Positions 2,133 to 20,207 of a DNA stretch of 64,000 bases are shown here, in pieces. Below the pieces are notes generated by a model. The model was not told the DNA's origin and searched no databases. It worked only from the letters and a program-made list of their open reading frames with translations. A program made the position numbers and the translations under genes. Each line of letters opens with the position of its first letter. Positions within the stretch are counted from its first letter, which is position 1. This DNA comes from Armatimonadota bacterium (GTDB lineage Bacteria > Sysuimicrobiota > Sysuimicrobiia > Sysuimicrobiales > Kaftiobacteriaceae), in contig JBBIUY010000004.1 of the NCBI GenBank assembly GCA_037440005.1, positions 23,673 through 87,672 of the forward strand, read 5' to 3'.

Positions 2133-2136
2133 GCCC

Positions 2137-2582
2137 TCAGTCCTCCCACTGCTCCAGTTCGCGCTCCAGCCACGCCCGTTGCCCGGGCGTCAGGGCGGGC
2201 GGGAGATCGGCGGAGGGCCGCTCGGACCGCCGCGACCACAGCGCGGCCAGGGCCGTCACCGCCGCGGCGCCGGCGACCAGGGCTGCGTAGGGCCCCCACC
2301 AGGCCACCAGGTTGAACCCCCGGCGCGGGGGAGCGGACAGCACCGCCTCCCCGTACGCGTCCACCAGGGCCGCCCGGATCTCGGCGTCGGTCCGGCCCTC
2401 GTTTTGCAGGCGGCCGATGGCGGCCAGCATCCGGTCCCGCGGTCCGCAGACGGGGTGGGTGCAGGTGGCCAGGGTGAGCCCGCACCCGCACTGACAGATG
2501 AACTGGTCGGCCAGGCCGCCGCCCGCGCGGGCGCCCGCGGGCAGCACCAGAAGCCCCAGCAGTGCCGCCAGCACCGCCGCCC

Positions 2583-2586
<4 letters not shown>
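2137..2586 (-). CDS. ccmH: Cytochrome c-type biogenesis protein CcmH/CycL-like
   Basis: 149 aa. Signal peptide, Cys cluster FICQCGCGLTLATCTHPVCG in the periplasmic domain, C-terminal TM segment. ATGA overlap with ccmF. Position immediately after ccmF is typical for ccmH. Confidence 0.6.
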
Positions 2587-4556
<1,970 letters not shown>

Positions 4557-4567
4557 GGGGATCCTCC

Positions 4568-4966
4568 TCAGCCTCCCGGCGCGGCCGCTTCAAACTTGGA
4601 CGGGCACTTGGCGAACAGCCGCTCGGCCACAAAGCGGGCGCCGTCGAAGCGACCCTCCACCACCACCTCCGCGCCGGGCTTGAAGGTGTCGGGCACCACC
4701 CCGCGGTAGGCGACCGCCACCTGCCGGGCGCCGTCGGTGACCCGGAACTCCAGCCGGCCGGCCGCCGGGTCCCAGGTCACGCTGCCCGGGGCCACGGTGC
4801 CGCCCAGGCGGATGGCGGCGCCGCCGATGGTCCCGGCGCGGTCCAGCAGCTCGCCCACGGTCATGTAGTAGGCCATGCTGCTGCGGGCTCCGGTGAAGGC
4901 GAGGTAGCCCCCCGCCGCCACGAAGACCGCCACAGCCAGCACAAACCTGCGGGTGGCGCGCCTCAT
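4568..4966 (-). CDS. ccmE: Heme chaperone CcmE, variant with Cys in place of the heme-binding His
   Basis: 132 aa. N-terminal TM anchor and OB-fold region (TVAPGSVTWDPAAGRLEFRVTDG...VVVEGRF). C-terminal motif LFAKCPSKFE aligns to canonical LAKHDENY. Start chosen at MRRATRRF (ATG 4966..4964), an ATGA overlap with ccmD. Confidence 0.8.
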   Translation of the reverse strand: MRRATRRFVLAVAVFVAAGGYLAFTGARSSMAYYMTVGELLDRAGTIGGAAIRLGGTVAPGSVTWDPAAGRLEFRVTDGARQVAVAYRGVVPDTFKPGAEVVVEGRFDGARFVAERLFAKCPSKFEAAAPGG

Positions 4967-5094
4967 CGCCGGTCCTCCTCTCCCGGCAGCCGCGCCTGCA
5001 GCGCCCGGCCCAGCCGGTGCAGGTACAGCACGTAGGCGAACAGACCACCCCACACGATGGCGTATCCCGCAAACATCGCCTCCAGGGGCGTCAT
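4963..5094 (-). CDS. ccmD: Heme exporter protein CcmD (small membrane protein)
   Basis: 43 aa, MTPLEAMFAGYAIVWGGLFAYVLYLHRLGRALQ..., a single TM helix. ATGA overlaps with both ccmC upstream and ccmE downstream. Confidence 0.55.
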   Translation of the reverse strand: MTPLEAMFAGYAIVWGGLFAYVLYLHRLGRALQARLPGEEDRR

Positions 5095-5840
5095 CCTGCC
5101 ACCTCCCCGGCTCCGGCGCGCACCCCCGACCGGCCCGCCCGCGCGGTCAGCCGGTCGGCCACCACCATCTGCTCCCGGCGCAGGCTGACCAGGATCACGT
5201 AGAGGATCGTGAAGGCGACCACGTTCACCACCAGGGCGTGGAGCATAGCCGGGTGCAGTCCCGATCCTACGCCCTCCGCCCCCACCACCACCGGCAGCGG
5301 GTGCAGCGACCGCCACCACAGCACCGAGAGGTAGATGAGGGGGATGTCCAGGAAGCCCACAATGCCCAGGACGGCGGCGAAGCGGGACGGCTGGGTCCCC
5401 GTCCCCCCATAGGCCCGCACCATCAGCGACGCCACGTAGATGAACCACAGCAGGAAGGTGGTGGTCAGGCGCGGATCCCAGCTCCACCACGTCCCCCAGG
5501 CGTACCGGCCCCACACCGACCCGCTGGCGATGGCCAGGGTGGTGAACACCACGCCCACCTCGGTGCTGGCGTGGGCGGTCAGGTCCCAGGCGCGCCGGCG
5601 GGTCCCCAGGTAGCCCACGCTGGCCGCGCAGACGACGGCAAAGGCCAGAAAGCCCACCCACGCCGCGGGAACGTGCACGTAGAAGATCCGCTGGGCCGCC
5701 CCCATGGTGCGTTCCTCGGGAGCGTACAGCAGGGCCATGTACAGGCCCGCCAGGAGCAGCGCGCTTCCCGCGGCGATCGCCGCCGCGCGCCAGTCCGCCC
5801 GGGCGGGCCTGGCCAACTCTCGGTGGCTGTCCGGCGGCAT
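5091..5840 (-). CDS. ccmC: Heme exporter protein CcmC
   Basis: 249 aa with the Trp-rich WWD motif AWGTWWSWDPRLTTT and 6 TM helices. Confidence 0.9.
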   Translation of the reverse strand: MPPDSHRELARPARADWRAAAIAAGSALLLAGLYMALLYAPEERTMGAAQRIFYVHVPAAWVGFLAFAVVCAASVGYLGTRRRAWDLTAHASTEVGVVFTTLAIASGSVWGRYAWGTWWSWDPRLTTTFLLWFIYVASLMVRAYGGTGTQPSRFAAVLGIVGFLDIPLIYLSVLWWRSLHPLPVVVGAEGVGSGLHPAMLHALVVNVVAFTILYVILVSLRREQMVVADRLTARAGRSGVRAGAGEVAG

Positions 5841-5841
5841 C

Positions 5842-6519
5842 TCACTCCTCCAGCACGTATTCGAACACCACAGACCCCACGACGGCGATCACCACGTCGA
5901 AGGCCGCCAGGATGCGGAGTCCCGGCAGGATGGCCGCCAGCGGGCGTCCGGCCAGGAGTTGGGCGGTGGCGCCGGCGGCGCTGAGGAGCACCGGGGCCGC
6001 CACGGGCAGCAGCAGAACGGGCAGCAGCACTTCCCGCATGCGCGTGTGCACCGACATGGCCGAGAACAGCGTGCCGGATGCGACCAACCCCGCGCTGCCC
6101 AGGACCAGCACCACCGCCAGGGGCCCGGCGGCCCGCCCCGGGGACACGCCGCCCAAGACGGCCAGGGCCGGGACCACCAGCGCCTCCACCGCCAGCAGGA
6201 CCAGCAGGGTGCTGGCGGCCTTGGCCACGTAGATCAGGGCCGGGTCGAACGGGAACAGGCGCAGGGCCTCCAGGCACCGCTCCTCCCGTTCCAGCGCGAA
6301 GGTCCGGGACAGCCCCAGGAGGCTGGCGAAGATCAGGGTCACCCACAGCATCCCCGGCGCCACCGCGGCGGCCTGGCCGGGGGCGGGAGAAAAGGCGAAC
6401 GTGAAGACCACGGTGACCAGCAGCGCAAACACCCCCATCGCCGACAGCATCTCCCGGGTCCGCAGTTCCAGGACCAGGTCCTTGCCCACCAGCAGCCCCA
6501 CGGCCCGCAGGGCGCTCAT
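5842..6519 (-). CDS. ccmB: Heme exporter ABC permease CcmB
   Basis: 225 aa polytopic membrane protein. Start at MSALRAVG (ATG 6519..6517) overlaps the ccmA stop in an ATGA arrangement. Confidence 0.8.
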   Translation of the reverse strand: MSALRAVGLLVGKDLVLELRTREMLSAMGVFALLVTVVFTFAFSPAPGQAAAVAPGMLWVTLIFASLLGLSRTFALEREERCLEALRLFPFDPALIYVAKAASTLLVLLAVEALVVPALAVLGGVSPGRAAGPLAVVLVLGSAGLVASGTLFSAMSVHTRMREVLLPVLLLPVAAPVLLSAAGATAQLLAGRPLAAILPGLRILAAFDVVIAVVGSVVFEYVLEE

Positions 6520-7259
6520 CGGTGGGCCCCCACCAGATCGGCGTACAGCCGCTCGGCGGCGCCCGGGTCGGGGAACCCGTTGAGCCCCTGGTAGGCCACC
6601 GCGCCGTCCACCAGGATCACCACCCGGTCGGCCAGGGCCAGGCCCTGCTCGATGCTGTGGGTGGTCAGGACCAGCGTGCGGCTTCCCCGCATCCGTCCCA
6701 GCAGGGCGGTCAGCAAGGCGGCGGCCGAGCGGTCCAGGCCCACGAAGGGCTCGTCCAGCAGCAGCAGGGGCGGGTCGTGCACCAGCGCCCGGGCGATGCT
6801 CAGCCGCCTGACCATGCCGTGGCTGAAGGTGCGGACCAGATCGTGGCGGCGCTCCCACAACCCCACCGCCTCCAGCAGCACCTCGGCCCGCCTGTCCGGC
6901 GTGTCCACCCCAAAGCCGCGCGCGGCGAAGACCAGGTTTTCCATCGCCGTCAGCCCCGCGTACAGGTAGCTGTGGTGGGAGACGACGCCGAGGCGCCGGC
7001 GCAGGGACGGGTCCTGCCAGGGATCCCGGCCAAACAGGCGCACCCGGCCGGCGGTGGGGCGCATGAGGGCGGCCAGGATCTTCACCAGGGTGGTCTTGCC
7101 GGCGCCGTTGGGGCCGAAGATCACCACCGCCTCGCCGTCGGGGACGTCGACGGTCACCCCCCGCAGCGCCTGCACGGGGCCAAAGGCCTTGACGAGATCA
7201 CGGGTCTGGATGGCGTGCACGCGCGCCCGCCGCCGTACGTTTCCTCTGTGCGCTTCCAC
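6516..7259 (-). CDS. ccmA: Heme exporter ABC ATPase CcmA
   Basis: Walker A GPNGAGKTT, ABC signature FSHGMVRRLSIA and Walker B LLLLDEP. The start may instead be the internal GTG at 7211 (VHAIQTRDL). Confidence 0.85.
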   Translation of the reverse strand: MEAHRGNVRRRARVHAIQTRDLVKAFGPVQALRGVTVDVPDGEAVVIFGPNGAGKTTLVKILAALMRPTAGRVRLFGRDPWQDPSLRRRLGVVSHHSYLYAGLTAMENLVFAARGFGVDTPDRRAEVLLEAVGLWERRHDLVRTFSHGMVRRLSIARALVHDPPLLLLDEPFVGLDRSAAALLTALLGRMRGSRTLVLTTHSIEQGLALADRVVILVDGAVAYQGLNGFPDPGAAERLYADLVGAHR

Positions 7260-7450: not shown

Positions 7451-9143
7451 GTGGACCGTGTTCGGGGTGTTCCCGTGCGCATCCGTCGGCGCACCTTCCT
7501 GACCCCCTCCGCGGCCGCGGCGGGCGCGGTGGCCGGCGCCCACCTGGTTCCGCGCCGGCTCACCGCCTTGCTGGCCCGGTCGTCCGGAGCGCCGGCGGGA
7601 CAACCGGCGGACGAGTGGGTTCCCACCACCTGCTGGATCGGCAAGCAGGACTGCGGGATCCTGGCCCGGCGGATCAACGGCCGCGTGGTCGAACTGGAGG
7701 GGCACCCCGGGAACCCGCTCAACCGCGGCACCCTCTGCCCCAAGGGCGTGGCCCAGATCATCGCGCTGTACGACCCTCACCGGGTGAAGGCGCCGCTGAT
7801 CCGGACCAACGAGAAAGGCGTGCCGGGGACATGGCGCCAGGCCTCCTGGGACGAGGCCCTGGACCTGGTGGCCCGGCGGATCCGGGAGGCGCGGGCGAAG
7901 GACCCCCGGCTGGTGGTCTGGCAGAAGGGCCGCAGCAAGGCCAAGGCCTTCTACGATGAGGCGTTCGTCAAGGCCTCGGGCGCCACGAAGCTGCACCACG
8001 GCGCGTTCTGCTCCGACGCCGGCTACCGTGCCAGCGAGTACACCGTGGGGATCTCCTGCGTTCTGCACCCCGACTTCCGCCACACCCGCTACCTGCTGGC
8101 GTGGGGGTGGAACGGCACCAACGCGGGCGGGAACATGTTGTGCTGGATCACCTGGCCCCAGCAGATGGCCGCCGCCCGGGAGCGGGGCATGAAGATCGTG
8201 GTCATCGACCCGCGCCTGCGGGGGATGGGGCCGTTCGCCGACGAGTGGCTGCCCATCCGCCCCGGCACCGACCTGGCGCTGGCCCTCGCCCTGTCTCACG
8301 AACTCCTGCGCCAGGGCGCCGTGGACCGGGAGTACTTGGCCCGCCACACCAACGCCCCCTTTCTGGTGGGGCCCGACGGATTCTTCGTGCGCCTCGGCGG
8401 GCAGGAGCAGATCTGGGACCGCCGCAGCGGCCGGCCCCGCCCCGCCGACGCCCCCGACGCCGACCCGGCCCTGGAGGGCGAGTACATCGTCGGGGGGAGG
8501 TTCGGGCGCGGCCGGTGTTCGCGGTGTTCGCCGAGCACGTGGCCCGCTACAGCCCCGAGTGGGCTGCCGGGGTCTGCGGCGTCCCGGCGGAGGCCATCCG
8601 GCGGGTGGCCCGGGAGCTGGGAGAAGAGGCCCGCATCGGCAGCACCATCGTCCTGGACGGGGTGACCCTGCCGTACCGTCCCGTGGCCATCATGGCCTAC
8701 CACATGGCCCAGCAGGAGCTGGGGTTCCAGGCGGTGCGGGCCATGATCACCGTGATGATGCTGCTGGGAGCGGTCGGGGCCGTGGGCGGGCAGCGGTTCG
8801 ACGTGGGCGGGTGGACGATTCACGAGAACTTTCACCTGCTCCTGGCCTTTTACCTGTTGCTGCGCCAGTTCCTCGCCGGGCGCAGCCGCATCGCGGTGCC
8901 CGTGGCGGCCGGGGTCCTGGTGAACGTCGCCGCGGTGGGCAAACGCATCCTGATCGTGGTTCCCTCCCAGACCCACGGGGCGATGCTGCCCTATCCGCCC
9001 GGGTGTACGCCCCCACCTGGGTGGAGTACAGTAGCGTGGGAGGGCTGGTGGCTCTGGGCACGCTGCTGTACGTCCTGTTCGCCAAGGTGTTTCCCCTCAT
9101 CGACCTGCCGGAAGACGTGTCGGAGGGAGCTCGACGACGGTGA
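7451..9143 (+). pseudogene. Decayed molybdopterin-oxidoreductase-like (MopB/ActB1-like) gene fused by internal deletion to the 3' end of an NrfD/ActC-like gene, with homopolymer frameshifts
   Basis: Frame 2 (7451 to ~8505) carries TAT motif RRRTFLT and an N-terminal CWIGKQDCG...LCPKG domain. A -1 shift in a GGGGGG run (~8505) moves into frame 1 with MopB motifs YSPEWAAGVCGVPAEAIRRVARELGE and LLGAVGAVGG. That frame runs directly into NrfD-type C-terminal helices: IAVPVAAGVLVNVAAVGKRILIVVP matches the intact paralogue's ATAASVLVNVGAWWKRYVIIVP. A second shift in a CCCGGG run (~8990) moves into frame 0, where YAPTWVEYSS...LFAKVFPLIDLPE matches the intact gene's C-terminus YTPTWVEWSI...LFSKLFPIVSLWE. 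No intact ORF encodes either protein. Confidence 0.6.
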
Positions 9144-9376
9144 GGACGCTCATCACCCGGACGCTGGTGGTGGTGGGCCTGGCCACGGCCACGGTGAGTT
9201 TCGCCCTGGCCCTGCCGCTGCGTCTGCCGGGCGCGGCGGCGGGGATCCCGGCGGTGGCGCGCCCGATCCCGTACCTGCCGGCGGCGTTCATCGCGGGGCT
9301 CATGCTGGTGTTCCTGGCGGCGGTGGCCTACGAACTGCTAACCGACCGCGACACCACCGAGCCGTGGCGGCCGTAG
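9140..9376 (+). CDS. Small 2-TM membrane protein; truncated paralogue of the 173-aa subunit encoded at 28088..28609
   Basis: 78 aa with a GTG start in a GTGA overlap with the preceding remnant. Its signal-like N-terminus and C-terminal segment PIPYLPAAFIAGLMLVFLAAVAYELL resemble MRWPGSAALLAALALTASAA... and PYPVPPLALLGVLVGAIWATYGYIVFLL of the 28088 product. The periplasmic domain between them is missing. Confidence 0.4.
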   Translation: MRTLITRTLVVVGLATATVSFALALPLRLPGAAAGIPAVARPIPYLPAAFIAGLMLVFLAAVAYELLTDRDTTEPWRP

Positions 9377-9386
9377 GGAGGACCCC

Positions 9387-10024
9387 ATGGGCCTGCGGGG
9401 TGTGGCCTGCGCGCGGGCCGAGGCGTACCAGGCGCTGGCGCAGGTCCTCCACTACCCCGACGGCGGGCGTCTGACCACCTTCCCCCGCACGGCCGCGCGC
9501 CTGCGGCGGCGGATCGATGCCCTCGCGGGCCTGGCGCAGTTCGATCCCGCCCGGCGCCTGGTGAGCCTGCTGGAGGCTGTGGCCCGGCAGGACCCCCGGA
9601 CCGTCCAGGCGACGTACGTCCGGGTGTTCGGGGTGGACGGAGCGGGCGGACGGCCCCCTGCGAGTCGTACTACCGGTCGCGCTCTCCCGCCGACGTTCCC
9701 CTGTTGATGGCCGCCCTGGAGCGCGTCTACGCCGCCGCCGGGCTGGCGGTCGATGCCGCAGGGGGTCTGCCGCCGGACCACCTCGTCGTCCAGATGGAGT
9801 TCATGGCCGTGCTGTGCGCCCGGGAGGGGGCGGCGTGGCGATCACCCCGCGGGGCGGCGGACGAGCTCGTCGCAGAGCAGCGGTTTCTCCGCTCCCACTG
9901 GCTGTCTGGCTGCCGGCGCTGGGCTCGGACGTCGCCCGGTGGGACCCGGTGGGCGCGTATGCCGGGATCGTCGGGTGTGCGGCCGACCTGGTGCGGCACG
10001 ACCTGGCGTTCCTCGCCGCCCTGA
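9387..10024 (+). pseudogene. TorD/DmsD-family redox-enzyme maturation chaperone, frameshifted
   Basis: Frame 0 (9387 to ~9650) shifts at a CCCCC run (~9655) into frame 2, where PCESYY...PPDHLVVQMEFMAVL carries the TorD-family hallmark motifs. The C-terminal part (WLPALGSDVARWDPVGAYAGIVGCAADLVRHDLAFLAALMRAS) lies in yet another frame near 9900. No ORF longer than 107 aa covers the family. Confidence 0.5.
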
Positions 10025-10072
10025 TGCGCGCCAGCGGCGCCGGTGTGCCGGCGGGGGAGGCCCTCCGGCCAT

Positions 10073-10643
10073 GAGCGGGCCCGGCGCCGACCGTCCGGCC
10101 GTCGGGGTCTTTTTGTGCGAGCACCTGGAGGCTCGCTGGGGCCTGCCGGTCTCGCAGGTGCAGCGGTGGGCGGCCGGCACGCCGGCCCTCACCCTCCGCG
10201 TGGTCAGGGGGGTGTGTGAGTCGCCGCGGGCGCTGCAGGAGCCCCTGGCCCGGAGCGGTGTGTCCCGGGCGGTGCTGGGGCTGTGCCGCCGGCCCGCCTC
10301 CCGGGCGGACCTGCAGGCCGCGGTCCGCCGGGCCGGGCTAGATCCCGCCGGCGTGGAGGTGGTGGACCTGGGCACCTACGCCGCGCGGGCCCACCGTCCT
10401 CCCGACGCGGGCCGCAAGGCCGTCATCCTGCTGGCCGGCGCCGTCGCGCGGGCCCGGGCGTTCGTCGGCAGCCTCCCCCACCATCACGTGCCGGTCTTCC
10501 CCCGGACCGTCAGCCGGAGGTCTTTACTGACCCTGTCGGCGCTGGAATACCGGTCGGCTCTCCCCAAGATCGAGGTCCGCCGGACCGGCGCGGTCTCCGA
10601 CCGCCCCCCCGGCGGGGCCGGTGGTGGCCCGGGTGAGCGATGA
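10073..10643 (+). CDS. Hypothetical protein with a degenerate MvhD/FlpD-like domain in which most Cys ligands are lost
   Basis: 190 aa. Segments VGVFLCEH, TLRVVRGVCESP, GVSRAVLGLCRRPAS and GLDPAGVEVVDLG align with the MvhD motifs vaFcCnwC, vRiiRVmCsGRv, GADGVLVsGChpGDC and GIDPeRvrv. Only 3 Cys are retained. Confidence 0.35.
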
Positions 10644-10884
10644 CCGCTCGGAGGGAGCGTTCGCCCCCACCGACATCCCCACTCTGGCTGACCACCTGCT
10701 GGCATCCGTCCTCGGTCCCCCGGCACAGTCCGCCCCGTAGGCCTCCCGGCGGCCCCCGGGCGGGCGCGCCGACGGCGTTCACGGATTCTTCACGGGTGCT
10801 TCACGGCCGGTTCTCCGGGGAAGGCTAGCGTCGACGGTGAGGGCGGGAAGCCCGAATACCTCTGACGCAGGGAGGAGGATGACG

Positions 10885-11574
10885 ATGTCTGTGCGGCTCC
10901 TGTACGTGGCTGCCGGCGTGGTCGCGCTGGCGGCGGCAGTGGCCCTCCCGGCCTTCAGCCAGCCCCGGTTGGGCGGCTGGGGCGGGTGCGCGGGTTTCGG
11001 CCCCACGGCACCGGCCGCGGGGCCCCTGACCATCGACGCCGCAGCGGACCGCGCCCGGCAGGCGCTGGCGGCGTGGGGGAACCCCGATCTGGCGGTGAAA
11101 GAGGTCATGGAGTTCAGCAACCACTTCTACGTGCTGGTGGTCGAGCGCAGCACGGGCCGCGGGGCGATGGAGCTCATCGTGGAGCGCTCCGGTCTCGTGC
11201 GCCCCGAGCCCGGTCCCAACATGATGTGGAACCTCAAGTACGGCCACATGGGCGGGACGGGCTGGGGCATGATGGGCGGCCGGGGTATGATGGGACCCGG
11301 CTGGGGAGGCGGCCGCGCGCCCGGCGGGTGGGGGCCCCCGCAGGCCGGTGAGCCGCTGACGGCGGAGCGGGCGCGGGAGATCGCCGCCCAGTTCCGGAAG
11401 TCGGCGTTTCCCGGCGCCGAGCCGGACGAGCACGGGGTGGCTTTCTACGGATACGTCACCTTTGACGTGGAGCGCGCCGGGCGGCCGGTCGGCATGCTGA
11501 GCGTGAACGCCTCCACCGGCCAGGTCTGGTACCACGCCTGGCACGGGGCGTTCGTCCGGGAGAAGGAGTTCTGA
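10885..11574 (+). CDS. Secreted protein with two PepSY-like domains joined by a Met/Gly-rich linker (candidate Cu-binding)
   Basis: 229 aa. Signal peptide MSVRLLYVAAGVVALAAAVALPAFS; linker GHMGGTGWGMMGGRGMMGPGWGGG. A GGAGGAGG RBS lies 6 nt upstream of the second in-frame ATG. Confidence 0.55.
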   Translation: MSVRLLYVAAGVVALAAAVALPAFSQPRLGGWGGCAGFGPTAPAAGPLTIDAAADRARQALAAWGNPDLAVKEVMEFSNHFYVLVVERSTGRGAMELIVERSGLVRPEPGPNMMWNLKYGHMGGTGWGMMGGRGMMGPGWGGGRAPGGWGPPQAGEPLTAERAREIAAQFRKSAFPGAEPDEHGVAFYGYVTFDVERAGRPVGMLSVNASTGQVWYHAWHGAFVREKEF

Positions 11575-11588
11575 GGAGGGATCCGACG

Positions 11589-11909
11589 GTGAGCGGACGC
11601 GATCTGGCGGTGGTGCTGCTGGTGGTCCTGGGCGCCCTGATCCTGCTGCCCGCCCTGGGGATGGCGGTGGGGGGATGCGGCGGGTGGATGGGGCCGGGCA
11701 TGATGGGTCGCTGGGGCTGGGGCCCGTGGGGAGGAGGGTGGGGACTCGTGGCGATGCTGCTGGCGCTGGCGGGGATCGTGCTGGTGGTCCTGGCCCTGGG
11801 GCGCCGGGAGGCCAGGGGGGACGAGGCGCTACAGATCCTGCGGCGCCGCCTGGCCAGCGGGGAGATCACCCCGGAGCAGTTCGAGGAACTCCGCAAGACG
11901 CTGCAGTAG
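11589..11909 (+). CDS. SHOCT-domain membrane protein with Met/Gly/Trp-rich loop
   Basis: 106 aa. Two TM helices flank GGCGGWMGPGMMGRWGWGPWGGGWG. The C-terminal ILRRRLASGEITPEQFEELRKTL is a SHOCT motif. GTG start with a GAGGAGGGA RBS. Confidence 0.6.
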   Translation: MSGRDLAVVLLVVLGALILLPALGMAVGGCGGWMGPGMMGRWGWGPWGGGWGLVAMLLALAGIVLVVLALGRREARGDEALQILRRRLASGEITPEQFEELRKTLQ

Positions 11910-11967
11910 ATCCCGGCCTCCGGGAGACCGGCCGGTCTCCCGGAGGCCGATGCGGGTGTGACCCACC

Positions 11968-12708
11968 GTGGGCCGACGGGTGGTGCTGGTGGTGGAGGAC
12001 GAGCCGGAGATCGCCGACGCCCTGCGCCAGTACCTGGAAAAGGACGGGTACACGGTGGCGGTGGCCGGCGACGGGCAGCGGGCCCTGGCCGAGTTCGCCC
12101 GCCTGCGGCCCGACCTGGTCCTGCTGGACCTGATGCTGCCCGGCCTGGACGGATGGGAGGTGACCCGCCGCATCCGCCAACAGGGGGTCACGCCCATCAT
12201 CATGCTCACCGCCCGCAGCGCCGAGGTGGACAAGCTGGTGGGCCTGGAGCTGGGCGCCGACGACTACATCACCAAGCCCTTTTCGCCCCGGGAGGTGGTG
12301 GCCAGGGTCCGGGCGGTGCTGCGCCGCGCCCGGGGCGGCGAGCCGGCGGCGGAGGTCGTGCGGGTGCACGACCTGGAGATCGATCCGACCCGGATGGAGG
12401 TGCGCCGGGGCGGGGTCCCGGTGACCCTCACGCCCACCGAGTTCAAACTCCTCCACGTCCTGGCGCGCCATCCCGGGCGGGTGTTCACCCGCATGCAGCT
12501 CATCGACCAGGTGCAGGGGTACGCCTTCGAGGGCTACGAGCGCACCGTGGACGCCCACATCAAGAACCTGCGGCGCAAGCTGGAGCCCGACCCCCGCCGC
12601 CCCCGCTACGTCCTCACCGTGCGCGGCGTGGGCTACCGGTTCGCCGAGGAGACCCGGCCCGGCGAAGGCGCCCCCGACGCGCGCCGGGCGGAGGACTCCC
12701 ATGGGTAG
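11968..12708 (+). CDS. OmpR-family response regulator (CusR/CopR-like)
   Basis: Receiver domain with phospho-acceptor region VLLDLMLPGLDGWEV, and a winged-helix output domain (LTPTEFKLLHVLARHPGRVFTR...YRF). Confidence 0.9.
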   Translation: MGRRVVLVVEDEPEIADALRQYLEKDGYTVAVAGDGQRALAEFARLRPDLVLLDLMLPGLDGWEVTRRIRQQGVTPIIMLTARSAEVDKLVGLELGADDYITKPFSPREVVARVRAVLRRARGGEPAAEVVRVHDLEIDPTRMEVRRGGVPVTLTPTEFKLLHVLARHPGRVFTRMQLIDQVQGYAFEGYERTVDAHIKNLRRKLEPDPRRPRYVLTVRGVGYRFAEETRPGEGAPDARRAEDSHG

Positions 12709-13822
12709 CGTGCGCGGGCGGCTCATCGTGGTCCTGGTCCTGGTGGCCTGGCTGTCGGTGGCGGTGGTGGGCGCGGTGACGGCCCGGCTGACGGCCGAGC
12801 GGTTCACCCTGTACCTGCGCCACAGTCCGATGATGCGGTCCCTGCCCGGCATGGAGGCGATGATGCGGGCGATGATGGGCGCCCCCGAGCGCGAATTCCT
12901 CCGGGGGGTGCGCCGCGCCATCTGGACGGCCGCGGTGCTGGGGCTGGCGGTGGCGGTGGTCCTGGGCACCCTGACCGCGCGTCAGCTCACCCAGCCCCTC
13001 CGGCGCCTGGCCGAGGCGGCGCGCCGGGTGGGCCGGGGCGACCTGGCGATCCGGGTGCCGGTGGACTCCAACGACGAGGTCGGAGAGGTGGCCCGGACGT
13101 TCAACGCCATGGTGGCCGAGCTGCACCGCAGCGAGGAGGACCGCCGCCGCCTGCTCGCCGACATCGCCCACGAACTGGGGACTCCCCTGGCCGCGCTGCA
13201 GGCCAACGTGGAGGGCATGCTGGACCGGGTGGTGGAGCCCACCCCCGCCAAGCTGGCCGCCCTGCACACCCAGATCCGGCTGCTGGCCCGGCTGGTCAGG
13301 GACCTGCAGGACCTCTCCCTGGCGCAGCAGGGGCGGCTGCCCCTGGACCGGCGGCCGGTGGACCTGGCCGAGCTGGTGCGGCAGGTCGTGGAGGTGGCGC
13401 GCCCGGCGGCCGAGGACAAGGGCGTCGCCCTGACCGCCTCCGCCGACGGGGCGCTGACGGTGCTCGCGGACCGCGAGCGCATCTCCCAGGTGCTGCACAA
13501 CCTGCTGGCCAACGCCATCCGCTACACCGAGCCCGGAGGACGGATCACGGTGACGGCCCGCCGGGAGGGGGGCGAGGTGCGGGTGGAGGTGGCCGACACC
13601 GGCGTGGGAATCCCGGACTCGGACCTCCCGCACGTCTTCGACCGGTTCCACCGGGTGGACCGCTCGCGGTCCCGCAGCAGCGGCGGGGCCGGGCTGGGCC
13701 TGGCCATCGTCAAGCACCTGGTGGAAGCCCACGGCGGACGGGTGTGGGCCCGCAGCCAGGTGGGCAGGGGGAGCACCTTCGGTTTCGCGCTGCCGTCCGG
13801 CGAAGGCGGCGGCCAGACCTGA
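12701..13822 (+). CDS. Sensor histidine kinase with Met-rich sensing segment (candidate copper sensor)
   Basis: 373 aa. TM1, then extracytoplasmic MMRSLPGMEAMMRAMMG, TM2, HAMP, HisKA (ADIAHELGTPLAAL) and HATPase_c. 8-nt overlap with the response regulator. Confidence 0.85.
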   Translation: MGSVRGRLIVVLVLVAWLSVAVVGAVTARLTAERFTLYLRHSPMMRSLPGMEAMMRAMMGAPEREFLRGVRRAIWTAAVLGLAVAVVLGTLTARQLTQPLRRLAEAARRVGRGDLAIRVPVDSNDEVGEVARTFNAMVAELHRSEEDRRRLLADIAHELGTPLAALQANVEGMLDRVVEPTPAKLAALHTQIRLLARLVRDLQDLSLAQQGRLPLDRRPVDLAELVRQVVEVARPAAEDKGVALTASADGALTVLADRERISQVLHNLLANAIRYTEPGGRITVTARREGGEVRVEVADTGVGIPDSDLPHVFDRFHRVDRSRSRSSGGAGLGLAIVKHLVEAHGGRVWARSQVGRGSTFGFALPSGEGGGQT

Positions 13823-13863
13823 GCCCGGGAGTTCGCCGGGGTGGTGCGGGGAGGGGGAGACCG

Positions 13864-14337
13864 ATGAGGACGCTGGTGGTCACGGCGCTGGTGGCGGGCC
13901 TGGCGGCGGGGATGCCGACCCCCGGGGCCACCGCGCCGCCACCCGCGGACGTCCTCGTGGAGGGGCGGGTGAGCGAGGGACATACCCTGCGCGACGGGGG
14001 GCAGGGCGGGGTGTGGATCGAGGCGACTCACCTGAGCCCGCAGTCTGTCCCTTCCCGGGCCCGGTCCGTCCTGCAGCGATACCCCCTGGACCGCCACACG
14101 GTCTTCGTGATCGCCATGGACACCCACAGCGTGGACCTGAGTCGGTACGACATGGAGAGACTCTCCGAGCTGCGCGCGGGCGGGAGGGGCTACGCCCCGG
14201 TCCGGTGGGAGGCCATCGCCGAGAGCAGCCACCACCGGCTGGGCGCGCTGATCTTCCCCCGTGTGGACCTGCCGGCCGACCTGGTGATCGCGGGTGTCGC
14301 CGGGGTGCCGGCGCGCGTCTTCCGGTGGCTGCCGTGA
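13864..14337 (+). CDS. Secreted hypothetical protein
   Basis: 157 aa. Signal peptide MRTLVVTALVAGLAAGMPTPGATA. No recognisable domain. Confidence 0.45.
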   Translation: MRTLVVTALVAGLAAGMPTPGATAPPPADVLVEGRVSEGHTLRDGGQGGVWIEATHLSPQSVPSRARSVLQRYPLDRHTVFVIAMDTHSVDLSRYDMERLSELRAGGRGYAPVRWEAIAESSHHRLGALIFPRVDLPADLVIAGVAGVPARVFRWLP

Positions 14338-14798
14338 TGGCCCCGTTCCGGATCCCGGATGCGCGGCAGGTCCGCCGGCCGCTGCTGGCGGGGGTGCTGT
14401 CCGCCGCCGGGCTAGCCGCCGCCTACAGCCTCGTCATCGGGCTGGCATCGCGGTCCTGGCCGCACCTGGCGGAGCAGTGGCGGACCGACGGGGCGTTCGT
14501 GGCGCTGGTGGTCGCCGGCTTCGGCATCCAGGTGGGCCTGTACCAGCACGTCCGGCGGGTGGTGCGCGCCCCCGCCGCGGTGGCCGCCGGCGGCACGGCC
14601 ACCTCCACCGCGGCCATGGTGGCCTGCTGCCTGCACCACCTGTCGGACGTGGCCCCACTGATCGGGCTGGCGGGGGCGGCCGCGTTCCTGACCCGCTACA
14701 AGGTGCCGGTGATCCTGGTCAGCCTGGGGGCCAACGGGGTGGGGATCGCCTGGATGGTGCGCACGCTCCGCCGCGCGCGGACGGCGGCGTGCGGCTGA
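14337..14798 (+). CDS. Hypothetical 4-TM membrane protein with intramembrane CC-x-HH motif
   Basis: 153 aa. ATGA-type overlap with the preceding gene. Motif AMVACCLHHLSDVAPLIG lies in a predicted TM segment. Confidence 0.45.
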   Translation: MAPFRIPDARQVRRPLLAGVLSAAGLAAAYSLVIGLASRSWPHLAEQWRTDGAFVALVVAGFGIQVGLYQHVRRVVRAPAAVAAGGTATSTAAMVACCLHHLSDVAPLIGLAGAAAFLTRYKVPVILVSLGANGVGIAWMVRTLRRARTAACG

Positions 14799-14849
14799 CG
14801 GGACCTGGTGCCTCGGGTCGCGCCGGCGGCGCGGTCTCAGGGCTGGCGG

Positions 14850-15242
14850 TCAGGCCCTCTGCACCTGCAGGGTGCGCAGAGGGCAATAGGCGTCCCGCCA
14901 CATCTTCTGCTGCCGGGCCCACTGGGCCCACACGTCGTCGCCCAGCTCGGCCCGGCGGGCGGCGGAGAAGATGCGGATGTCCTCTCCGCGGCTTTCGGCG
15001 GCGAAGTGCACCAGCAGGATGCACGGGAACTCCGGGCACAGGCCGCAGTGCTCCACCCGGTGCTCCCGCGCGCAGGAGTAGATCGGGCAGATCTTCTCCA
15101 AGCGGACCTCGCCCTGGGTGGCGCAGGTGGCGGCCAGGGCCTCGTACCAGGCGCTGCCTTCCCAGTACAGGCCGCAGACGGCGGCAAAGTCCTCCGGCGC
15201 CTGTTTGGGGGACGCGCCGGTTGACCTCCCGGATACGGTCAT
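14850..15242 (-). CDS. Cys-rich protein, DUF3795-like (putative Fe-S/Zn binding)
   Basis: 130 aa; cysteine cluster CPIYSCAREHRVEHCGLCPEFPC. Confidence 0.45.
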   Translation of the reverse strand: MTVSGRSTGASPKQAPEDFAAVCGLYWEGSAWYEALAATCATQGEVRLEKICPIYSCAREHRVEHCGLCPEFPCILLVHFAAESRGEDIRIFSAARRAELGDDVWAQWARQQKMWRDAYCPLRTLQVQRA

Positions 15243-15353
15243 GGCGGTTCGCCTCCGGCGTCCAGCCTAGCCACACGGGACCGCAGAGGCCATCGGGCGG
15301 ACACTGTATACCCGGAGCTCGCGCCCCGACGGACAGGAGGGCCGGGGCGGGAC

Positions 15354-16235
15354 CTACCGGGACGTCTCCTGGCGGTAGCCGCTGAGAGCGGCGAGCTCCT
15401 GCAGGGACAGCACGCCTTCATAGCGGCGGCCGCCGATGTCCCACGTCGGGTAGGCGCGGACCCCGGCCGCCGCGCACACCTCGGGCTGTCCGATGGGGGA
15501 TCGGGGATCGCACTCGATGTACGGCAGCAGCGCCGCGGCGTCCCCGAACAGGGCCTTCTGGTCCGCGCAGTGGGGGCACCAGTATGCCCCGTAGAACTTC
15601 GCCCCGGTGGCGGACAGGTGGCGGGCCAGGCCGGCCGCAAACGACGCGTCCGGCGGGGTCGGCGCGGACAGCCGGTAGCCCGAGATCAGGAACACCACAG
15701 CCGCAGCGGCGGCGGCCGCCGTCCACCTCCAGGTTCCCGCCGCGGGCCGGCGGGGCCGTCGGACGATCAGGAGTCCCAGGAGGGCCACGGTCAGCAGCGC
15801 GGAGACGACGCACAAGCTGCAGGTGACCTGCAGGAGCACCCGCTGGACCACGGTGAAGACCGCCGAGGCGGCGACGCCGGCGCCGGCCACGGGCACCGCC
15901 ACCGCCCAGCGGCGGTCCTCCGGGGCCGGGCGCAACCCCAGGGCCAGCAGGCTCCCGTAGTACCCCAGGCCCAACAGGGCGACCGGGATCCCGAAGACCG
16001 CCGCATAGCGGCTGGACTGCACCACGTCGCACCCGCCCCCCGCCGGGCAGTACACCGGGACGTGGGCGGCGCGCGCGTACAGCAGGTAGGCGCTGAGGAC
16101 GACGCCGAGCCCGCTGAGGATCGCCAGCCGGAGATCCGGCGACCTCACTGCGGCGCGGCTGCGGCGGTCCGGTCGGCGGGGAGTCGGCCTTGTCATCCTC
16201 CGCCCATCATACCCCGCCGCCACCGCTCCGTCCAC
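15354..16235 (-). CDS. Vitamin K epoxide reductase (VKOR)-family protein fused to a thioredoxin-like domain (DsbB-analogue disulfide-bond formation)
   Basis: VKOR TM core with YCPAGGGCD and active-site TCSLCV. C-terminal Trx-like domain with YGAYWCPHCADQK. The start is uncertain: GTG at 16235 or the internal ATG (MTRPT). Confidence 0.8.
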   Translation of the reverse strand: MDGAVAAGYDGRRMTRPTPRRPDRRSRAAVRSPDLRLAILSGLGVVLSAYLLYARAAHVPVYCPAGGGCDVVQSSRYAAVFGIPVALLGLGYYGSLLALGLRPAPEDRRWAVAVPVAGAGVAASAVFTVVQRVLLQVTCSLCVVSALLTVALLGLLIVRRPRRPAAGTWRWTAAAAAAAVVFLISGYRLSAPTPPDASFAAGLARHLSATGAKFYGAYWCPHCADQKALFGDAAALLPYIECDPRSPIGQPEVCAAAGVRAYPTWDIGGRRYEGVLSLQELAALSGYRQETSR

Positions 16236-17028: not shown

Positions 17029-18765
17029 GTGGCCATGGGGCTGCGCAGCCGGATCATGCTCCTGGTGGCGATCGGCCTGGTCGCCGCCACGGCGCCCCTG
17101 GGGATCATGGGCCTGCTGATGGTGCAGGCGGCCACGGACCGGGTCCTGGAGGAACGGCTCGCCACGACCCGGACCGTGGCCGCCCACCTGAGCGAACGGC
17201 TGGCCCAGGGGTGGGCCCACCTGAAGTGGATCGCGTCCAGGGCTGCGTCCACCGGGGGCCGGGGGCTGGCCGACCTGGACGCCGGCCCCCCCGCGGGAGT
17301 TCTGACGGGGGGCATAGCGGTGGTGGATGGCCGCGGCCGCCCCCTCGCCGGCGTGCTCAGGTCGGGCGGCCTCCTGGAGGCCGGGGCATGGGTCGTCCGG
17401 GAGGCGCTCCGCACCGGGCACCCCCGGATCAGCCCCCTGGTGCGTGCCCGCGATGCGGCCGGCGTCCTCCTGGTCGTGCCGGTGACATCTCCCGGCGGGG
17501 CGGTGACGGGCGCCGTGGTGGGGGTCGTCGATCTGACCGGCCCGGTCCTGCGGAACTTCGTCGCCGGCCTGGCCCAGGGGGCGACCGGCCACGCCGTGGT
17601 GGTGGACCGGGACGGCACGGTCCTGGCCAGCACCCGGGACGAAGATCTGTTCACCCGCAGCGAGCACCCGGAGTTCTTCGCCCGGCTGATTTCCGGCGGA
17701 CGGCCCCTGGTGGCCCCGGCCGAGAAGGTCTCCACGTCCCGCGGGAGCAGGGAGACCCACGTGATGGCCTTTGCGCCGGTGGCGGGCGCTCCGTGGGGAG
17801 TCGGCGTCGGCCAGGACGACCGGGAGACCTTCGGCCCCCTACGCCGCCTGCGGGACCGCATCATCGTGTTCGAGGTCCTGGTCCTGGCGGTCGCCCTGGG
17901 GTTTGCCTGGCTGGACACCGGGGCCGTCAGCGCGCCCCTGCGGGCGCTGACCGTCGCCACCGAGCGTATCGCCGGCGGCGACCTCAGCCAGTCCATCGAC
18001 GTCCGCCGCACCGACGAGATCGGGGATCTGGGTCGCAGTTTCGAGGTCATGCGGCAGAGGCTGCTGCGCTCGCTGGACGAGAACGCCCGGCTGCAGGAGC
18101 GGCTGCTGTCGGTGGCCGTGCTGGAAGAGCGGGAGCGCATCGCCCGGGAGATGCACGACCACGTGGGACAGGTCCTGGGCTACGTGAACACCAAGGCGCA
18201 GGCGGTGCGGGCGCTGGTGGAGGCCGGGCGGCTGGAGGAGGCCCGCCGTCAGCTGTCCCAGCTGGAGGAGGCGGTGCGGGAGGTCTACGCCGACCTGCGG
18301 GAGGCGATCCTCAGCCTGCGGACGGCGCCCGCTCCCGGCCGACCGCTGGCCCAGGCGCTCCGGGAGTACGCCCTGCGGTTCAGCGAGATGAGCGGGATCC
18401 CCGTGGAGGTGGCCATCGAGGCCGACGGGGCCCTCAGCCGCCTGACGTCCACCGCGGAGCTGCACCTCATCCGTATCGTCCAGGAGGCCCTCACCAACGT
18501 CCGCAAACACGCCCGGGCCCGTCGGGCGTGGGTGCGGTGCGCGTGCCGGGGAGACGAGCTGGTGGTGAGCGTCGCCGACGACGGGGTGGGGTTTGACCCC
18601 GGCGGTCCCCACGGCGGGATCCGATTCGGGGTGTCGTCCATGCGCGAGCGCGCGGAGGCCGTGGGGGGCGCGCTGGCCATCCGGTCCGCCCCCGGAGCCG
18701 GGACCGAGGTGGAGGTCCGTCTGCGGATCGGGAGGGAGCCCGATGCGCGTGCTGCTGGCCGATGA
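17029..18765 (+). CDS. Sensor histidine kinase (NarX/HisKA_3-type) with periplasmic sensor domain and HAMP
   Basis: 578 aa. Two TM helices flank a ~250-aa extracytoplasmic domain. HAMP linker, then H-box EERERIAREMHDHVGQ (HisKA_3) and HATPase_c. Confidence 0.85.
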   Translation: MAMGLRSRIMLLVAIGLVAATAPLGIMGLLMVQAATDRVLEERLATTRTVAAHLSERLAQGWAHLKWIASRAASTGGRGLADLDAGPPAGVLTGGIAVVDGRGRPLAGVLRSGGLLEAGAWVVREALRTGHPRISPLVRARDAAGVLLVVPVTSPGGAVTGAVVGVVDLTGPVLRNFVAGLAQGATGHAVVVDRDGTVLASTRDEDLFTRSEHPEFFARLISGGRPLVAPAEKVSTSRGSRETHVMAFAPVAGAPWGVGVGQDDRETFGPLRRLRDRIIVFEVLVLAVALGFAWLDTGAVSAPLRALTVATERIAGGDLSQSIDVRRTDEIGDLGRSFEVMRQRLLRSLDENARLQERLLSVAVLEERERIAREMHDHVGQVLGYVNTKAQAVRALVEAGRLEEARRQLSQLEEAVREVYADLREAILSLRTAPAPGRPLAQALREYALRFSEMSGIPVEVAIEADGALSRLTSTAELHLIRIVQEALTNVRKHARARRAWVRCACRGDELVVSVADDGVGFDPGGPHGGIRFGVSSMRERAEAVGGALAIRSAPGAGTEVEVRLRIGREPDARAAGR

Positions 18766-19390
18766 CCACGCCCTGTTCCGGGACGGGATCCGCAGCCTGC
18801 TGGAAGCCCGGGGCGTGGAGGTGGTGGGGGAGGCCGGCGACGGGCAGGAGGCGGTGGAGGCCGCGCTCCGGCTGCGGCCGGACGTGATCCTGATGGACGT
18901 GACCATGCCGCGCATGGACGGACTGGACGCCACGCGGCACATCACGGCGCGCCTGCCGCAGGCGACGGTGGTGATGCTCACCGTCTCCGACGACGACCGC
19001 ACCCTGTTTGAGGCCCTCAAGAGCGGCGCCCGGGGCTATTTGCTCAAGAACCTGCGGGCCGAGGAGTTCTTTGAGCTGCTGGCCGGCATCGAGCGCGGCG
19101 AGCCCGCCCTCTCGCCCCGCCTGGCGGGCCGCATCCTGGAGGAGTTCCGCCGGAGCCGGAGGGCGCCCGACCGCCCGGACGCCGACGACCTGACCGAACG
19201 GGAGTTGGAGGTCCTGCGGCTGCTCAGCCAGGGCGCCAGCAACCGAGAGATCGCCGCGGCGTTGCACATCTCGGAGAACACCGTCAAGTTTCACATCAAG
19301 AACATCCTGGACAAGCTCCACCTGCGCAACCGGGCCGAGGTGGTGGCCTACGCCGCGCGCCGGGGGTGGTTGCCGCCCGGCCCGCCGTAG
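18743..19390 (+). CDS. NarL/LuxR-family response regulator
   Basis: Receiver domain MRVLLADDH...DVTMPRMDG plus a LuxR HTH (LTERELEVLRLLSQGASNREIAAALHISENTVKFH). Overlaps the kinase by 23 nt. Confidence 0.9.
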   Translation: MRVLLADDHALFRDGIRSLLEARGVEVVGEAGDGQEAVEAALRLRPDVILMDVTMPRMDGLDATRHITARLPQATVVMLTVSDDDRTLFEALKSGARGYLLKNLRAEEFFELLAGIERGEPALSPRLAGRILEEFRRSRRAPDRPDADDLTERELEVLRLLSQGASNREIAAALHISENTVKFHIKNILDKLHLRNRAEVVAYAARRGWLPPGPP

Positions 19391-19514: not shown

Positions 19515-20207
19515 ATGACCTCGACGCGTCTTCCACGACCGCCCCGGCGGCGGGCGCCCGTCCTCCGGCCCCCGGACGCCCGGGAGGACATCCTCCGCCA
19601 CCTGCCGTCGTCGGGCGGCCGCACCGTCCGCGAGCTGGCGCGCCTGGTCCGCCTGTCCCCGTCGGCGCTGCGTCAGCACCTGGCGTCTCTGGAGCGGGAC
19701 GGCCTGGTGGACAGGGCGGCGATCCGCGGGAAGCCGGGGCGGCCGGCGTTCGCATACCGCCGCGCGGTCCCCCCGGCCGGTCCGGTGCCCGCGGACCCGT
19801 CCCGGGTCCTCAGCACCCTGCTGCGGGTGGTGGAGGCCCAGGATCCGCGGCGCGTCGCCGAGATCGTGGACGGCGTGGTGGCGGCGCTGGAGGACGAGTA
19901 CGGGGCCGTCCGACAGATTTCCGATCCCGGCGCCCGCGTCCGCGCCGCCGCCTCGGTCCTGTTCGACGCCGAGGGGCAGGCGCAGGTCCGCGCCGCCGCC
20001 GACGGCTACGAGGTGAGCCTGCGCCGCTGCCCCCTGCTCCCGGCGGCGCGGGAGTCCCCGGCGTGCTGCGAGATCGCCCGGCGCCTGCTGGGCAGGCTCT
20101 CCGGGGCCGAGGTGGAGCAGCGGGAGTCGCTGCTGCGAGGGGACCCGCGGTGCCTGTTCGTGCTGCGGGTGCCGCCGGCGTCCCGACATCTGGCGGAGGC
20201 GGGGTAA
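19515..20207 (+). CDS. Winged-helix (ArsR-like) transcriptional regulator with Cys-rich C-terminal domain
   Basis: 230 aa. HTH region VRELARLVRLSPSALRQHLASLERDGLV. C-terminal CPLLP...CCEIARRLL...RCLF cysteine cluster. Lies immediately upstream of the oxidase operon. Confidence 0.55.
   Translation: MTSTRLPRPPRRRAPVLRPPDAREDILRHLPSSGGRTVRELARLVRLSPSALRQHLASLERDGLVDRAAIRGKPGRPAFAYRRAVPPAGPVPADPSRVLSTLLRVVEAQDPRRVAEIVDGVVAALEDEYGAVRQISDPGARVRAAASVLFDAEGQAQVRAAADGYEVSLRRCPLLPAARESPACCEIARRLLGRLSGAEVEQRESLLRGDPRCLFVLRVPPASRHLAEAG

Follow-up and report, generated by a model that had tools for sequence, protein, structure and literature searches.

The 64,000-nucleotide stretch analyzed here (the window; contig JBBIUY010000004.1 of the Armatimonadota assembly GCA_037440005.1, positions 23,673 to 87,672) carries on its + strand a compact gene cluster in which a predicted operator is followed by the gene for a secreted protein with two PepSY-like domains (G1), the gene for a small SHOCT membrane protein (G2), a hairpin, and the genes for a response regulator (G3), a histidine kinase (G4), and two further proteins, one secreted (G5) and one membrane-bound (G6). 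A sequence-only reading of this DNA had described G1 to G4 as a Met-rich module and a candidate copper-sensing system; the four + strand open reading frames (ORFs) lie exactly where it placed them, and the three Met-rich peptides that it quoted were all recovered verbatim. The guanine plus cytosine (GC) content of the window is 73% and, because the GC content at third codon positions is 0.91–0.96 in all four ORFs, as in real genes of this genome, G1 to G4 can be regarded as real coding frames; a ribosome-binding site (GGAGGAGG) lies upstream of the G1 start. The unit is, however, larger than four genes, with G5 and G6 joining it as predicted co-transcribed genes; G5 starts 41 nt past the stop codon of G4 on the same strand, and the start of G6 overlaps the stop codon of G5 by one base (TGATG). 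The operator and these two downstream genes, which have the best links to copper, were overlooked in the sequence-only reading. The favored interpretation, to which a probability of about 0.55 is attached, is that the cluster is an autoregulated operon for sensing and buffering Cu(I), probably also Ag(I), in the cell envelope. The features of the region are listed in Table 1.

Table 1. Features in and around the G1 operon, numbered from the first nucleotide of the window.
Feature	Position	Strand	Description
Truncated molybdopterin oxidoreductase	7451-8665		
NarJ-like fragment	9704-10024		
Predicted response-regulator operator	10778-10815	+	four direct repeats, exact 11-bp period
-10-like hexamer	10826-10831	+	TAGCGT, 10 nt past last repeat
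G1, secreted tandem PepSY-like protein	10885-11574	+	229 aa; N-terminal signal/anchor helix, two motifs, linker
G2, SHOCT membrane protein, two transmembrane helices	11589-11909	+	106 aa; external GWMGPGMMGRWGWG loop, cytoplasmic C-terminal SHOCT
Perfect 16-bp GC-rich hairpin between G2 and G3	11914-11949	+	no U-tract
G3, OmpR/PhoB-family response regulator	11968-12708	+	246 aa; Response_reg and Trans_reg_C (Pfam)
G4, histidine kinase	12701-13822	+	373 aa; first transmembrane helix, ~45-residue external loop (LRHSPMMRSLPGMEAMMRAMMGAPE), second transmembrane helix, HAMP, HisKA, HATPase_c
G5, secreted Ig-like beta-sandwich protein	13864-14337	+	invariant DTHSVDL and SxHHR motifs
G6, membrane protein, four transmembrane helices	14337-14798	+	intramembrane ACCLHH motif
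G7, DUF3795 Cys-rich protein	14850-15242	-	PF12675; recurrent neighbor
G8, VKOR-family disulfide oxidoreductase	15354-16235	-	PF07884, 3e-20; kept next to module in closest relatives

When the 40 genes of the window are ranked by the number of Met residues in any 20-residue stretch, the first three ranks are held by the three Met-rich proteins (G1, the SHOCT protein, and the kinase). Relative to the Met background of 1.57% in the 37 other genes, the binomial tail probabilities are 4e-9 for the kinase loop (7 Met in 17 residues), 6e-7 for the motif and linker of G1 (7 in 32), and 3e-3 for the SHOCT loop (3 in 19). These enrichment statistics, together with the conservation described below, rule out that the Met tracts are a chance product of the high GC content. 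Their assignment to the extracytoplasmic side in the sequence-only reading follows from the signal peptide and transmembrane topology only.

The label “PepSY protein” given to G1 is not derivable from sequence models, because G1, like G5 and G6, has no match in Pfam or NCBIfam, even at E ≤ 10; with the Pfam PepSY model (PF03413) there is no match at E ≤ 0.01 or at E ≤ 10, none of the best 120 of at least 1,580 G1 homologs carries a precomputed Pfam domain, and the G1 alignment, used as a profile against PDB sequences, matched nothing meaningful. At the level of the fold, however, the label stands. The AlphaFold model has an N-terminal helix, two α+β domains, and a disordered linker, with a predicted local distance difference test (pLDDT) score of 75 overall, 85–96 in the domains, and <50 in the linker; the domains are predicted to consist, in tandem, of an α-helix on a curved antiparallel β-sheet, like the solved PepSY proteins. 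G1 is nevertheless a family of its own with a PepSY-like fold, distinct from Pfam PepSY. The family is large: a word-indexed search gave the at least 1,580 homologs mentioned above, and among the best 120 listed most are unnamed and the named ones are almost all “hypothetical protein,” and a profile search run exhaustively against 1.84 billion representatives (clusters at 50% identity) gave 1,488 clusters with E ≤ 1e-3, of which 1,103 have E ≤ 1e-10. It is carried by at least 586 bacterial and archaeal genomes (one genome per GTDB species), in lineages that include CSP1-3/Sysuimicrobiota (NCBI label Armatimonadota), Chloroflexota, Bipolaricaulota, Fraserbacteria, Spirochaetota, Actinomycetota, and Bathyarchaeia; the closest relative is from Candidatus Calidihabitans (Sysuimicrobiota/CSP1-3), and an exact-sequence look-up with the G1 in the window returned no record. 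The alignments contain two invariant blocks, EPGPNMMWNxKYGHM and GMLSVNxxTGQVWYHxWHGxF, with a Gly/Met/Trp linker between them whose length varies. Of the 150 top-ranking representatives, 128 have MMW and 142 have HxWHG, and 81 of the 124 linkers from this set contain three or more Met residues. In an extreme homolog, P0155, the inter-domain linker is an array of (GMMGP/S)n in which 24 of 72 residues are Met.

The labels proposed for the other three proteins agree with Pfam. G2 matches SHOCT (PF09851) over residues 79–105 with 33.6 bits, relative to a cutoff of 27 (3e-8); G3 contains Response_reg (PF00072, 3e-33) and Trans_reg_C (PF00486, 6e-30) and is a member of the OmpR/PhoB family; and G4 has HAMP, HisKA, and HATPase_c domains. 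Membership of the CusRS/CopRS heavy-metal subfamily is ruled out, however, by curated cutoffs and by the architecture of the sensor. G3 is below the cutoff for every NCBIfam equivalog (the best is MtrA, 250 with a cutoff of 300; HprR is also among the matches, far below cutoff) and scores 190.4 with the copR subfamily model TIGR01387, for which the cutoff is 279.2. For G4, the scores are 227.6 with the CusS/CopS/SilS model TIGR01386 (cutoff 292.55) and 154 with the Cu/Ag sensor model PRK09835 (cutoff 423), and its hydrophobic helices are only ~45 residues apart, in place of the folded periplasmic domain of ~150 residues found in sensors of the CusS type. The comparison with CusS/CopS that had been suggested as a check therefore indicates that the kinase is not a relative. 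A homolog search with the N-terminal 150 residues of the kinase gave no match at E ≤ 1e-3, and the sensors compared below were taken from ORFs neighboring G1 in the fetched loci.

The conservation of the module was examined in a set of 86 non-redundant G1 loci, which are referred to by L numbers. An orthologous regulator adjoins G1 co-directionally in 31 loci and a kinase in 27, so that an exported protein with a PepSY-like fold is found near a histidine kinase and a response regulator across genomes, as in DbfQRS-like modules; a SHOCT gene adjoins G1 in 21 loci, and G6 is present in 14. The regulators beside G1 in Chloroflexota are 46–64% identical to G3, and one on a Rubrobacter plasmid is 58% identical. 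The full order of G1, SHOCT, regulator, and kinase (with G5 and G6), accompanied by DUF3795 and VKOR genes on the other strand, is found again in the closest relatives, metagenome-assembled genomes of CSP1-3/“Armatimonadota,” whereas in Chloroflexota the regulator and kinase genes either follow or precede G1. VKOR occupies the same position in L004, L007, L009, L011, and L018. DUF3795 is found in 8 loci; in L001 (7283-7669) and L027 it immediately precedes G1, in the same orientation.

Absence of the Met-rich tracts from orthologs had been named as a ground for abandoning the copper proposal, but the tracts are conserved across phyla in G1 homologs, SHOCT partners, and cognate kinases. All of the SHOCT partners that adjoin G1, including the archaeal ones, have an external GMMGPGMMG loop, and the kinase sensors of close relatives have the form RHxxxMPGMxxMMRxMMGxPE. 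Kinases beside G1 have the loops PMGMMMPGMTGQPGGMMGPGMMSDMM and MMGPGMMGPDMGPGMMWNW in Anaerolineae and GLGMMSGNGSSGAGMMSP in Chloroflexia. On a plasmid of Rubrobacter tropicus (L092 5071-7915), two tandem Met-rich SHOCT proteins precede an orthologous regulator-kinase pair, in which the kinase loop is LGEMGRMMDEMMGPEA, and there is no G1 gene; this island also carries ArsR, CDF, DUF305, CcdA, redoxin, glutaredoxin, and sulfurtransferase genes.

The operator upstream of G1 has the sequence TTCACggattc TTCACgggtgc TTCACggccgg TTCTC, with TTCAC at 10778, 10789, and 10800 and TTCTC at 10811. It is the only site in the window that scores ≥17/20, and the shorter pattern TTCACN6TTCAC, with up to one mismatch, has four matches in the window, relative to 0.93 expected, of which three are overlapping registers of the operator. 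An array of the form (TTCAY-N6)x4, followed after 10–11 nt by TAnnnT, is present 60–150 bp upstream of G1 in 35 of the 86 loci; it spans several phyla and is also found upstream of G1 in loci without an adjacent two-component system. The operator consensus was built from 31 bacterial loci of the 35, in which TAnnnT is kept at the same distance. Elsewhere in the 1.1 Mb of fetched sequence, on both strands, there are about a dozen such sites, several of which precede a G1-containing operon. In the pho box of PhoB, the repeats replace the -35 element and end ~10 bp before the -10 element; the repeats here likewise end ~10 bp upstream of the -10-like hexamer, so that the array would replace the -35 element in a PhoB-like manner and activation is implied. 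Scans of 10500–15300 with sigma-70 and terminator consensus sequences found nothing, and the lack of a canonical promoter in the region of 10826 is as expected, since the promoter is inferred to be activator-dependent. The simplest reading would be that G3 autoregulates and that G1 is its primary conserved target, and it is very probable that the module as a whole is conserved and autoregulated. A TTCAC-repeat site with a score of 17/20 also lies between a PhoU/Trans_reg_C gene and pstB in L001 (12540, - strand), and the box class therefore overlaps with PHO-box-like sites. In four bathyarchaeal loci (L036, L051, L065, and L086), 3–5 copies of GTTTCA[A/C]AACT with an 11-bp period are found ~60–115 bp upstream of G1; this repeat precedes an AT-rich TATA-like box, often with an ArsR-type regulator nearby, and may be an archaeal operator for G1.

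The hairpin between G2 and G3 has a centroid energy of −42.9 kcal/mol (z = −3.4). In L009, the closest relative, its stem is kept and its loop is changed, and loci in which G2 and G3 overlap do not have it. It is a candidate intra-operon attenuator or mRNA-stability element and may determine how strongly the binders are expressed relative to the regulators.

Linkage to copper genes is seen not in the window but in the homologous loci. In 13 of the 86 loci, a CPx P-type ATPase is encoded no more than 8 kb from G1, as compared with ~1% for a Cu-ATPase in a random 16-kb stretch (our own rough estimate), and all 10 of the neighboring ATPases tested pass the cutoff of the copper-translocating model TIGR01511, with scores well above those with Cd/Zn models. 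Proteins with YHS domains are found near G1 in 15 loci, with Cupredoxin_1 in 13, and with HMA motifs in 13, and any copper marker is present in 32. The homologs of G6 have the intramembrane motif ACC(L/A)HH and are fused to a YHS domain in L012, L019, and L026; in L029, a continuous ORF of 1,031 residues (7810-10905), placed between G1 and the G5-regulator-kinase genes, combines a G6-type ACCLHH domain with two CopZ-like HMA domains and a CopA ATPase. In L019, the gene directly after the kinase (10931-11587), which is preceded by a box-like site at 10868, encodes a protein with a SHOCT motif at its N terminus, a transmembrane segment, a stretch rich in Met (GGMGMPGWMAPMMPGMGGMPHM), and a cupredoxin domain that has a C...H...M site. 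The two conserved motifs of G5, DTHSVDL and SxHHR, are probably a metal site. In two cultured bacteria, the SHOCT-G1 pair is part of a canonical copper island in the annotated genome. The island on plasmid pMtWR-220 of Meiothermus taiwanensis WR-220 (SHOCT, WP_013156689; G1, WP_013156688) contains genes for a regulator, a kinase, DUF411, a four-helix Cu-binding protein, a multicopper oxidase, and DUF302, and then for SHOCT, G1, a copper P-type ATPase (CopA), DUF305, an HMA protein, and a CsoR-like metal-sensitive repressor, and one on plasmid pFRL6 of Streptomyces sp. F12 contains SHOCT, G1, DUF305, DUF3105, and CopC. In Bathyarchaeia, G1 occurs without a two-component system, and ArsR/SmtB-type regulators are located alongside it in 16 loci. 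Silver induces a SHOCT membrane protein in Haloferax (PMC10694973). The description of the module as a candidate copper-sensing system therefore gains strong, though purely associative, support from ATPases, YHS, HMA, and cupredoxin neighbors, G6 fusions, and copper islands, but the kinase is not of the CusS/CopS type and there is no copper transporter in the window.

The module had also been described as lying between a decayed operon and a cupredoxin-rich respiratory operon. About 3.3 kb of apparently decayed genes (7451-10643) were indeed found between G1 and a cytochrome c maturation operon (CcmA/B/C/E/F/H-like, 544-7259, - strand), which abuts G1 directly in the relative L004, but the cox operon with further cupredoxins (COX2 at 20214, COX1 at 20982) is not adjacent, being ~6 kb downstream. 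A nearby demand for copper is a circumstantial argument for copper sensing. The intervening region encodes a second two-component system, with a dCache/HAMP/HisKA_3 kinase (17029-18765) and an overlapping ORF (18593-19390) that is a NarL/LuxR-type regulator as read from its N-terminal sequence only, and an ArsR-type regulator (19515-20207) lies directly before the cox operon.

The periplasmic copper chaperone CusF binds Cu(I)/Ag(I) through His36, Met47, and Met49 with Trp44 as a cap (PMC9302797). In the mechanism proposed here, the invariant Met-Met-Trp...His-Met of exported G1 would provide a CusF-like ligand set (two Met, His, and a capping Trp), and Cu(I) would be bound additionally by the flexible GMMG linker of G1 and by the external loops of the SHOCT protein (GMMGPGMMG) and the kinase (His/Met). 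Metal-bound G1 would then touch the minimal sensor of the kinase and shift its kinase/phosphatase balance, by analogy with modules of PepSY proteins and two-component systems, and phosphorylated G3, bound to the four TTCAY repeats in place of a -35 element and 10 bp before the -10 element, would switch the operon on. Activation would increase the levels of the Met-rich binders G1 and G2, and transcription past the leaky hairpin would also raise those of the regulators and of G5 and G6, which would handle copper at the membrane. The system could either respond to an excess of copper or serve the supply of copper to the neighboring respiratory enzymes. Copper or silver as the signal has the same probability as the envelope operon itself, and the four-gene sensor module, which is kept in bacteria of hot springs and in archaea alike, is probably a previously undescribed way of sensing copper outside the cytoplasm; no description linking SHOCT, the GPGMMG motif, a Met-rich PepSY protein, or the G1 family to copper sensing was found in the literature. 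A more specific version, in which Cu(I) bridges a shared GMMGPGMMG-type code on G1, the SHOCT protein, and the kinase (which has no folded sensor domain), so that occupancy is read as the assembly of a ternary complex and not by a dedicated binding pocket, must be considered rather unlikely. If it were correct, G1 would represent a new family of co-sensors that bind Cu(I) outside the cytoplasm, and a role could be assigned to SHOCT for the first time: it would form the cytoplasmic end of a membrane adaptor that responds to metal.

It should be recognized that a number of observations weigh against a copper operon. All of the evidence for copper comes from neighborhoods or fusions in other genomes; 54 of the 86 loci have no copper marker in the fetched flanks, the 64-kb window has no gene for CopA (the copper transporter), YHS, or HMA, and some neighbors of G1 (Zip; FTR1, rhodanese, and DsrE) point elsewhere. 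The linker of G1 offers no site geometry because it is disordered in the model, the kinases of L012, L019, L031, and L045 have His-rich loops that are poor in Met, and both the kinase and the regulator have scores below cutoff for the NCBIfam heavy-metal subfamilies. The TTCAC box is absent from the copper island of Meiothermus (as it is from the Rhodococcus loci) and, because 11-bp repeats of the TTCAC type are generic for OmpR/PhoB regulators, G3 is only inferred to be the regulator that binds to the operator.

Some of these observations would be accommodated if the cluster were a generic envelope-stress module of a PepSY protein and a two-component system, in which the Gly/Met/Trp tracts serve not as metal ligands but as flexible hydrophobic tethers or as surfaces for contact between proteins, and the copper islands reflect the joint selection of envelope functions on mobile islands. 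The occurrence of PepSY proteins beside two-component systems is >60-fold enriched, and such a module responds to membrane perturbation in Vibrio (PMC12714742). The disorder and variable length of the G1 linker and the 54 loci with no copper gene nearby are also in keeping with this explanation, and the pattern MxxMMxxMM in the kinase loop would align Met residues on one face of a helix, as in peptide-binding Met surfaces. It is nevertheless unlikely, as it does not account for the frequency of Cu-ATPases near G1 relative to that estimated for random stretches, for the fusion of G6 to CopA and YHS, for the replacement of the two-component system by ArsR-type metalloregulators at archaeal loci, or for the resemblance of the invariant His/Met/Trp set to the site of CusF.

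The signal might also be a different soft or transition metal (Zn, Fe(II), Hg, or Cd) or a reduced sulfur species. BqsS, the histidine kinase of a module consisting of a PepSY protein and a two-component system, senses Fe(II). A PepSY relative, UipA, binds Fe or U (PMC8963506). Among the G1 loci, L001 has a Zip permease beside G1, L002 and other Chloroflexota have FTR1/FtrD-like, rhodanese, TusA, and DsrE genes near it, and the Rubrobacter island has a CDF transporter and a sulfurtransferase. However, the ATPases tested all score as the copper subtype, and contexts with multicopper oxidase, CopC, DUF411, and CsoR-like proteins are specific for copper. Thioether-rich Met motifs, moreover, prefer Cu(I)/Ag(I) to Zn or Fe, and sensing or buffering of another metal or of sulfur is accounted less likely again than an envelope-stress function.

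In the third alternative, which is plausible on chemical grounds, reactive chlorine or oxygen species oxidize the exposed Met residues, and the signal read by the kinase is its own Met-sulfoxide state or that of G1. Escherichia coli HprS/YedV, whose activity requires Met in its periplasmic loop and for which a Met redox switch has been proposed (bioRxiv 10.1101/2021.09.09.459708), provides a precedent; redox neighbors are kept (VKOR here and DsbD/CcdA-like genes in 9 loci), and HprR is among the sub-cutoff matches of the regulator. An msr regulon like that of HprSR is nonetheless rejected, as no MsrA (GCFWG) or MsrB (RYCxN/GHVF) signature was found in any ORF of the 86 loci, and with no msrPQ-like output beside the module, and with the invariant His and Trp of G1 and the fusions of G6 to YHS and CopA left unexplained, redox sensing is the least probable of the three alternatives. 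Since there is a link between the oxidation of Met and copper stress in E. coli (PMC9302797), the redox and copper explanations are not fully exclusive.

Returning to copper, to our knowledge its extracytoplasmic sensing is well understood only for kinases of the proteobacterial CusRS/CopRS type, and little is known of it in Terrabacteria, Chloroflexota, candidate phyla, and archaea. For a large family annotated as “hypothetical proteins,” the present analysis provides a Met/His/Trp motif that is sharply conserved, and hence a simple binding assay, and it points to a kinase whose entire sensor is a Met/His loop of ~45 residues and to a first functional context for the widespread and unexplained SHOCT membrane proteins. 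A defined operator would allow the prediction of regulons in hundreds of uncultured genomes. Homologous pairs are present on plasmids of cultured Meiothermus, Streptomyces, Rhodococcus, and Rubrobacter (the Rubrobacter island being without G1), so that the hypothesis is directly testable.

Comparison with known systems places the module between several types. Like CusRS, CopRS, PcoRS, and SilRS, with their CusF, PcoE, and SilE binders, it would consist of a kinase that senses periplasmic Cu(I)/Ag(I) and Met-rich binders under its control, and the ligand set of G1 (Met, Met, His, Trp) matches the site of CusF. It differs from CusRS in the scores below cutoff with TIGR01386 and TIGR01387, in lacking the periplasmic domain of ~150 residues and a resistance-nodulation-division efflux pump, and in its operator, which consists of direct repeats, the box bound by CusR being a palindrome. 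In E. coli HprSR (YedVW/HypVW), as proposed here, Met residues in the external loop of the kinase are functional sensor residues, but the signal there is the oxidation of Met by hypochlorous acid and the output is msrPQ, in contrast to the G1 loci with their lack of MsrA and MsrB signatures.

The closest analogues are the PepSY-plus-two-component modules, represented by DbfQRS, and CopRS of Corynebacterium. The first kind includes DbfQRS of Vibrio cholerae, PA2658/PA2659-BqsRS of Pseudomonas aeruginosa, and UipRS-UipA of Microbacterium. In DbfQRS, the PepSY protein DbfQ binds to the sensor of DbfS and sets its kinase/phosphatase balance (PMC12714742), and UipRS is encoded upstream of the metal-binding UipA (PMC8963506). 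G1 differs from the PepSY proteins of these modules in lying outside the Pfam model and in having a linker rich in Met and Gly and invariant Met/His/Trp motifs that are peculiar to it; in the kinase, a loop of ~45 residues takes the place of a folded sensor domain on which a PepSY protein could dock, a SHOCT membrane protein is present as a third partner, and the G1 family extends to archaea that have no two-component system with it. The second kind is represented by CopS of Corynebacterium glutamicum, which has a His/Met loop of 31 residues followed by HAMP-HisKA-HATPase, and CopR, which binds to TGAAGATTTnnTGAAGATTT, a repeat with an 11-bp period and a TCTTCA core (PMC3140484). The kinase described here has the same architecture, with two transmembrane helices, a short His/Met loop (~45 residues), and HAMP-HisKA-HATPase_c, and the core of the CopR repeat, in reverse complement AAATCTTCA, resembles the (a)nTCTTCAC repeats found here, a likeness to the published description that should be regarded as a lead. 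Both systems have a single operator and are autoregulated, as predicted in the present case. A multicopper oxidase and an ATPase encoded next to CopRS of C. glutamicum are under its control, whereas the window has no copper effector; on the other hand, PMC3140484, in the part consulted, describes no PepSY-like or SHOCT partner of CopRS, whereas the module described here has both and combines the two kinds of system.

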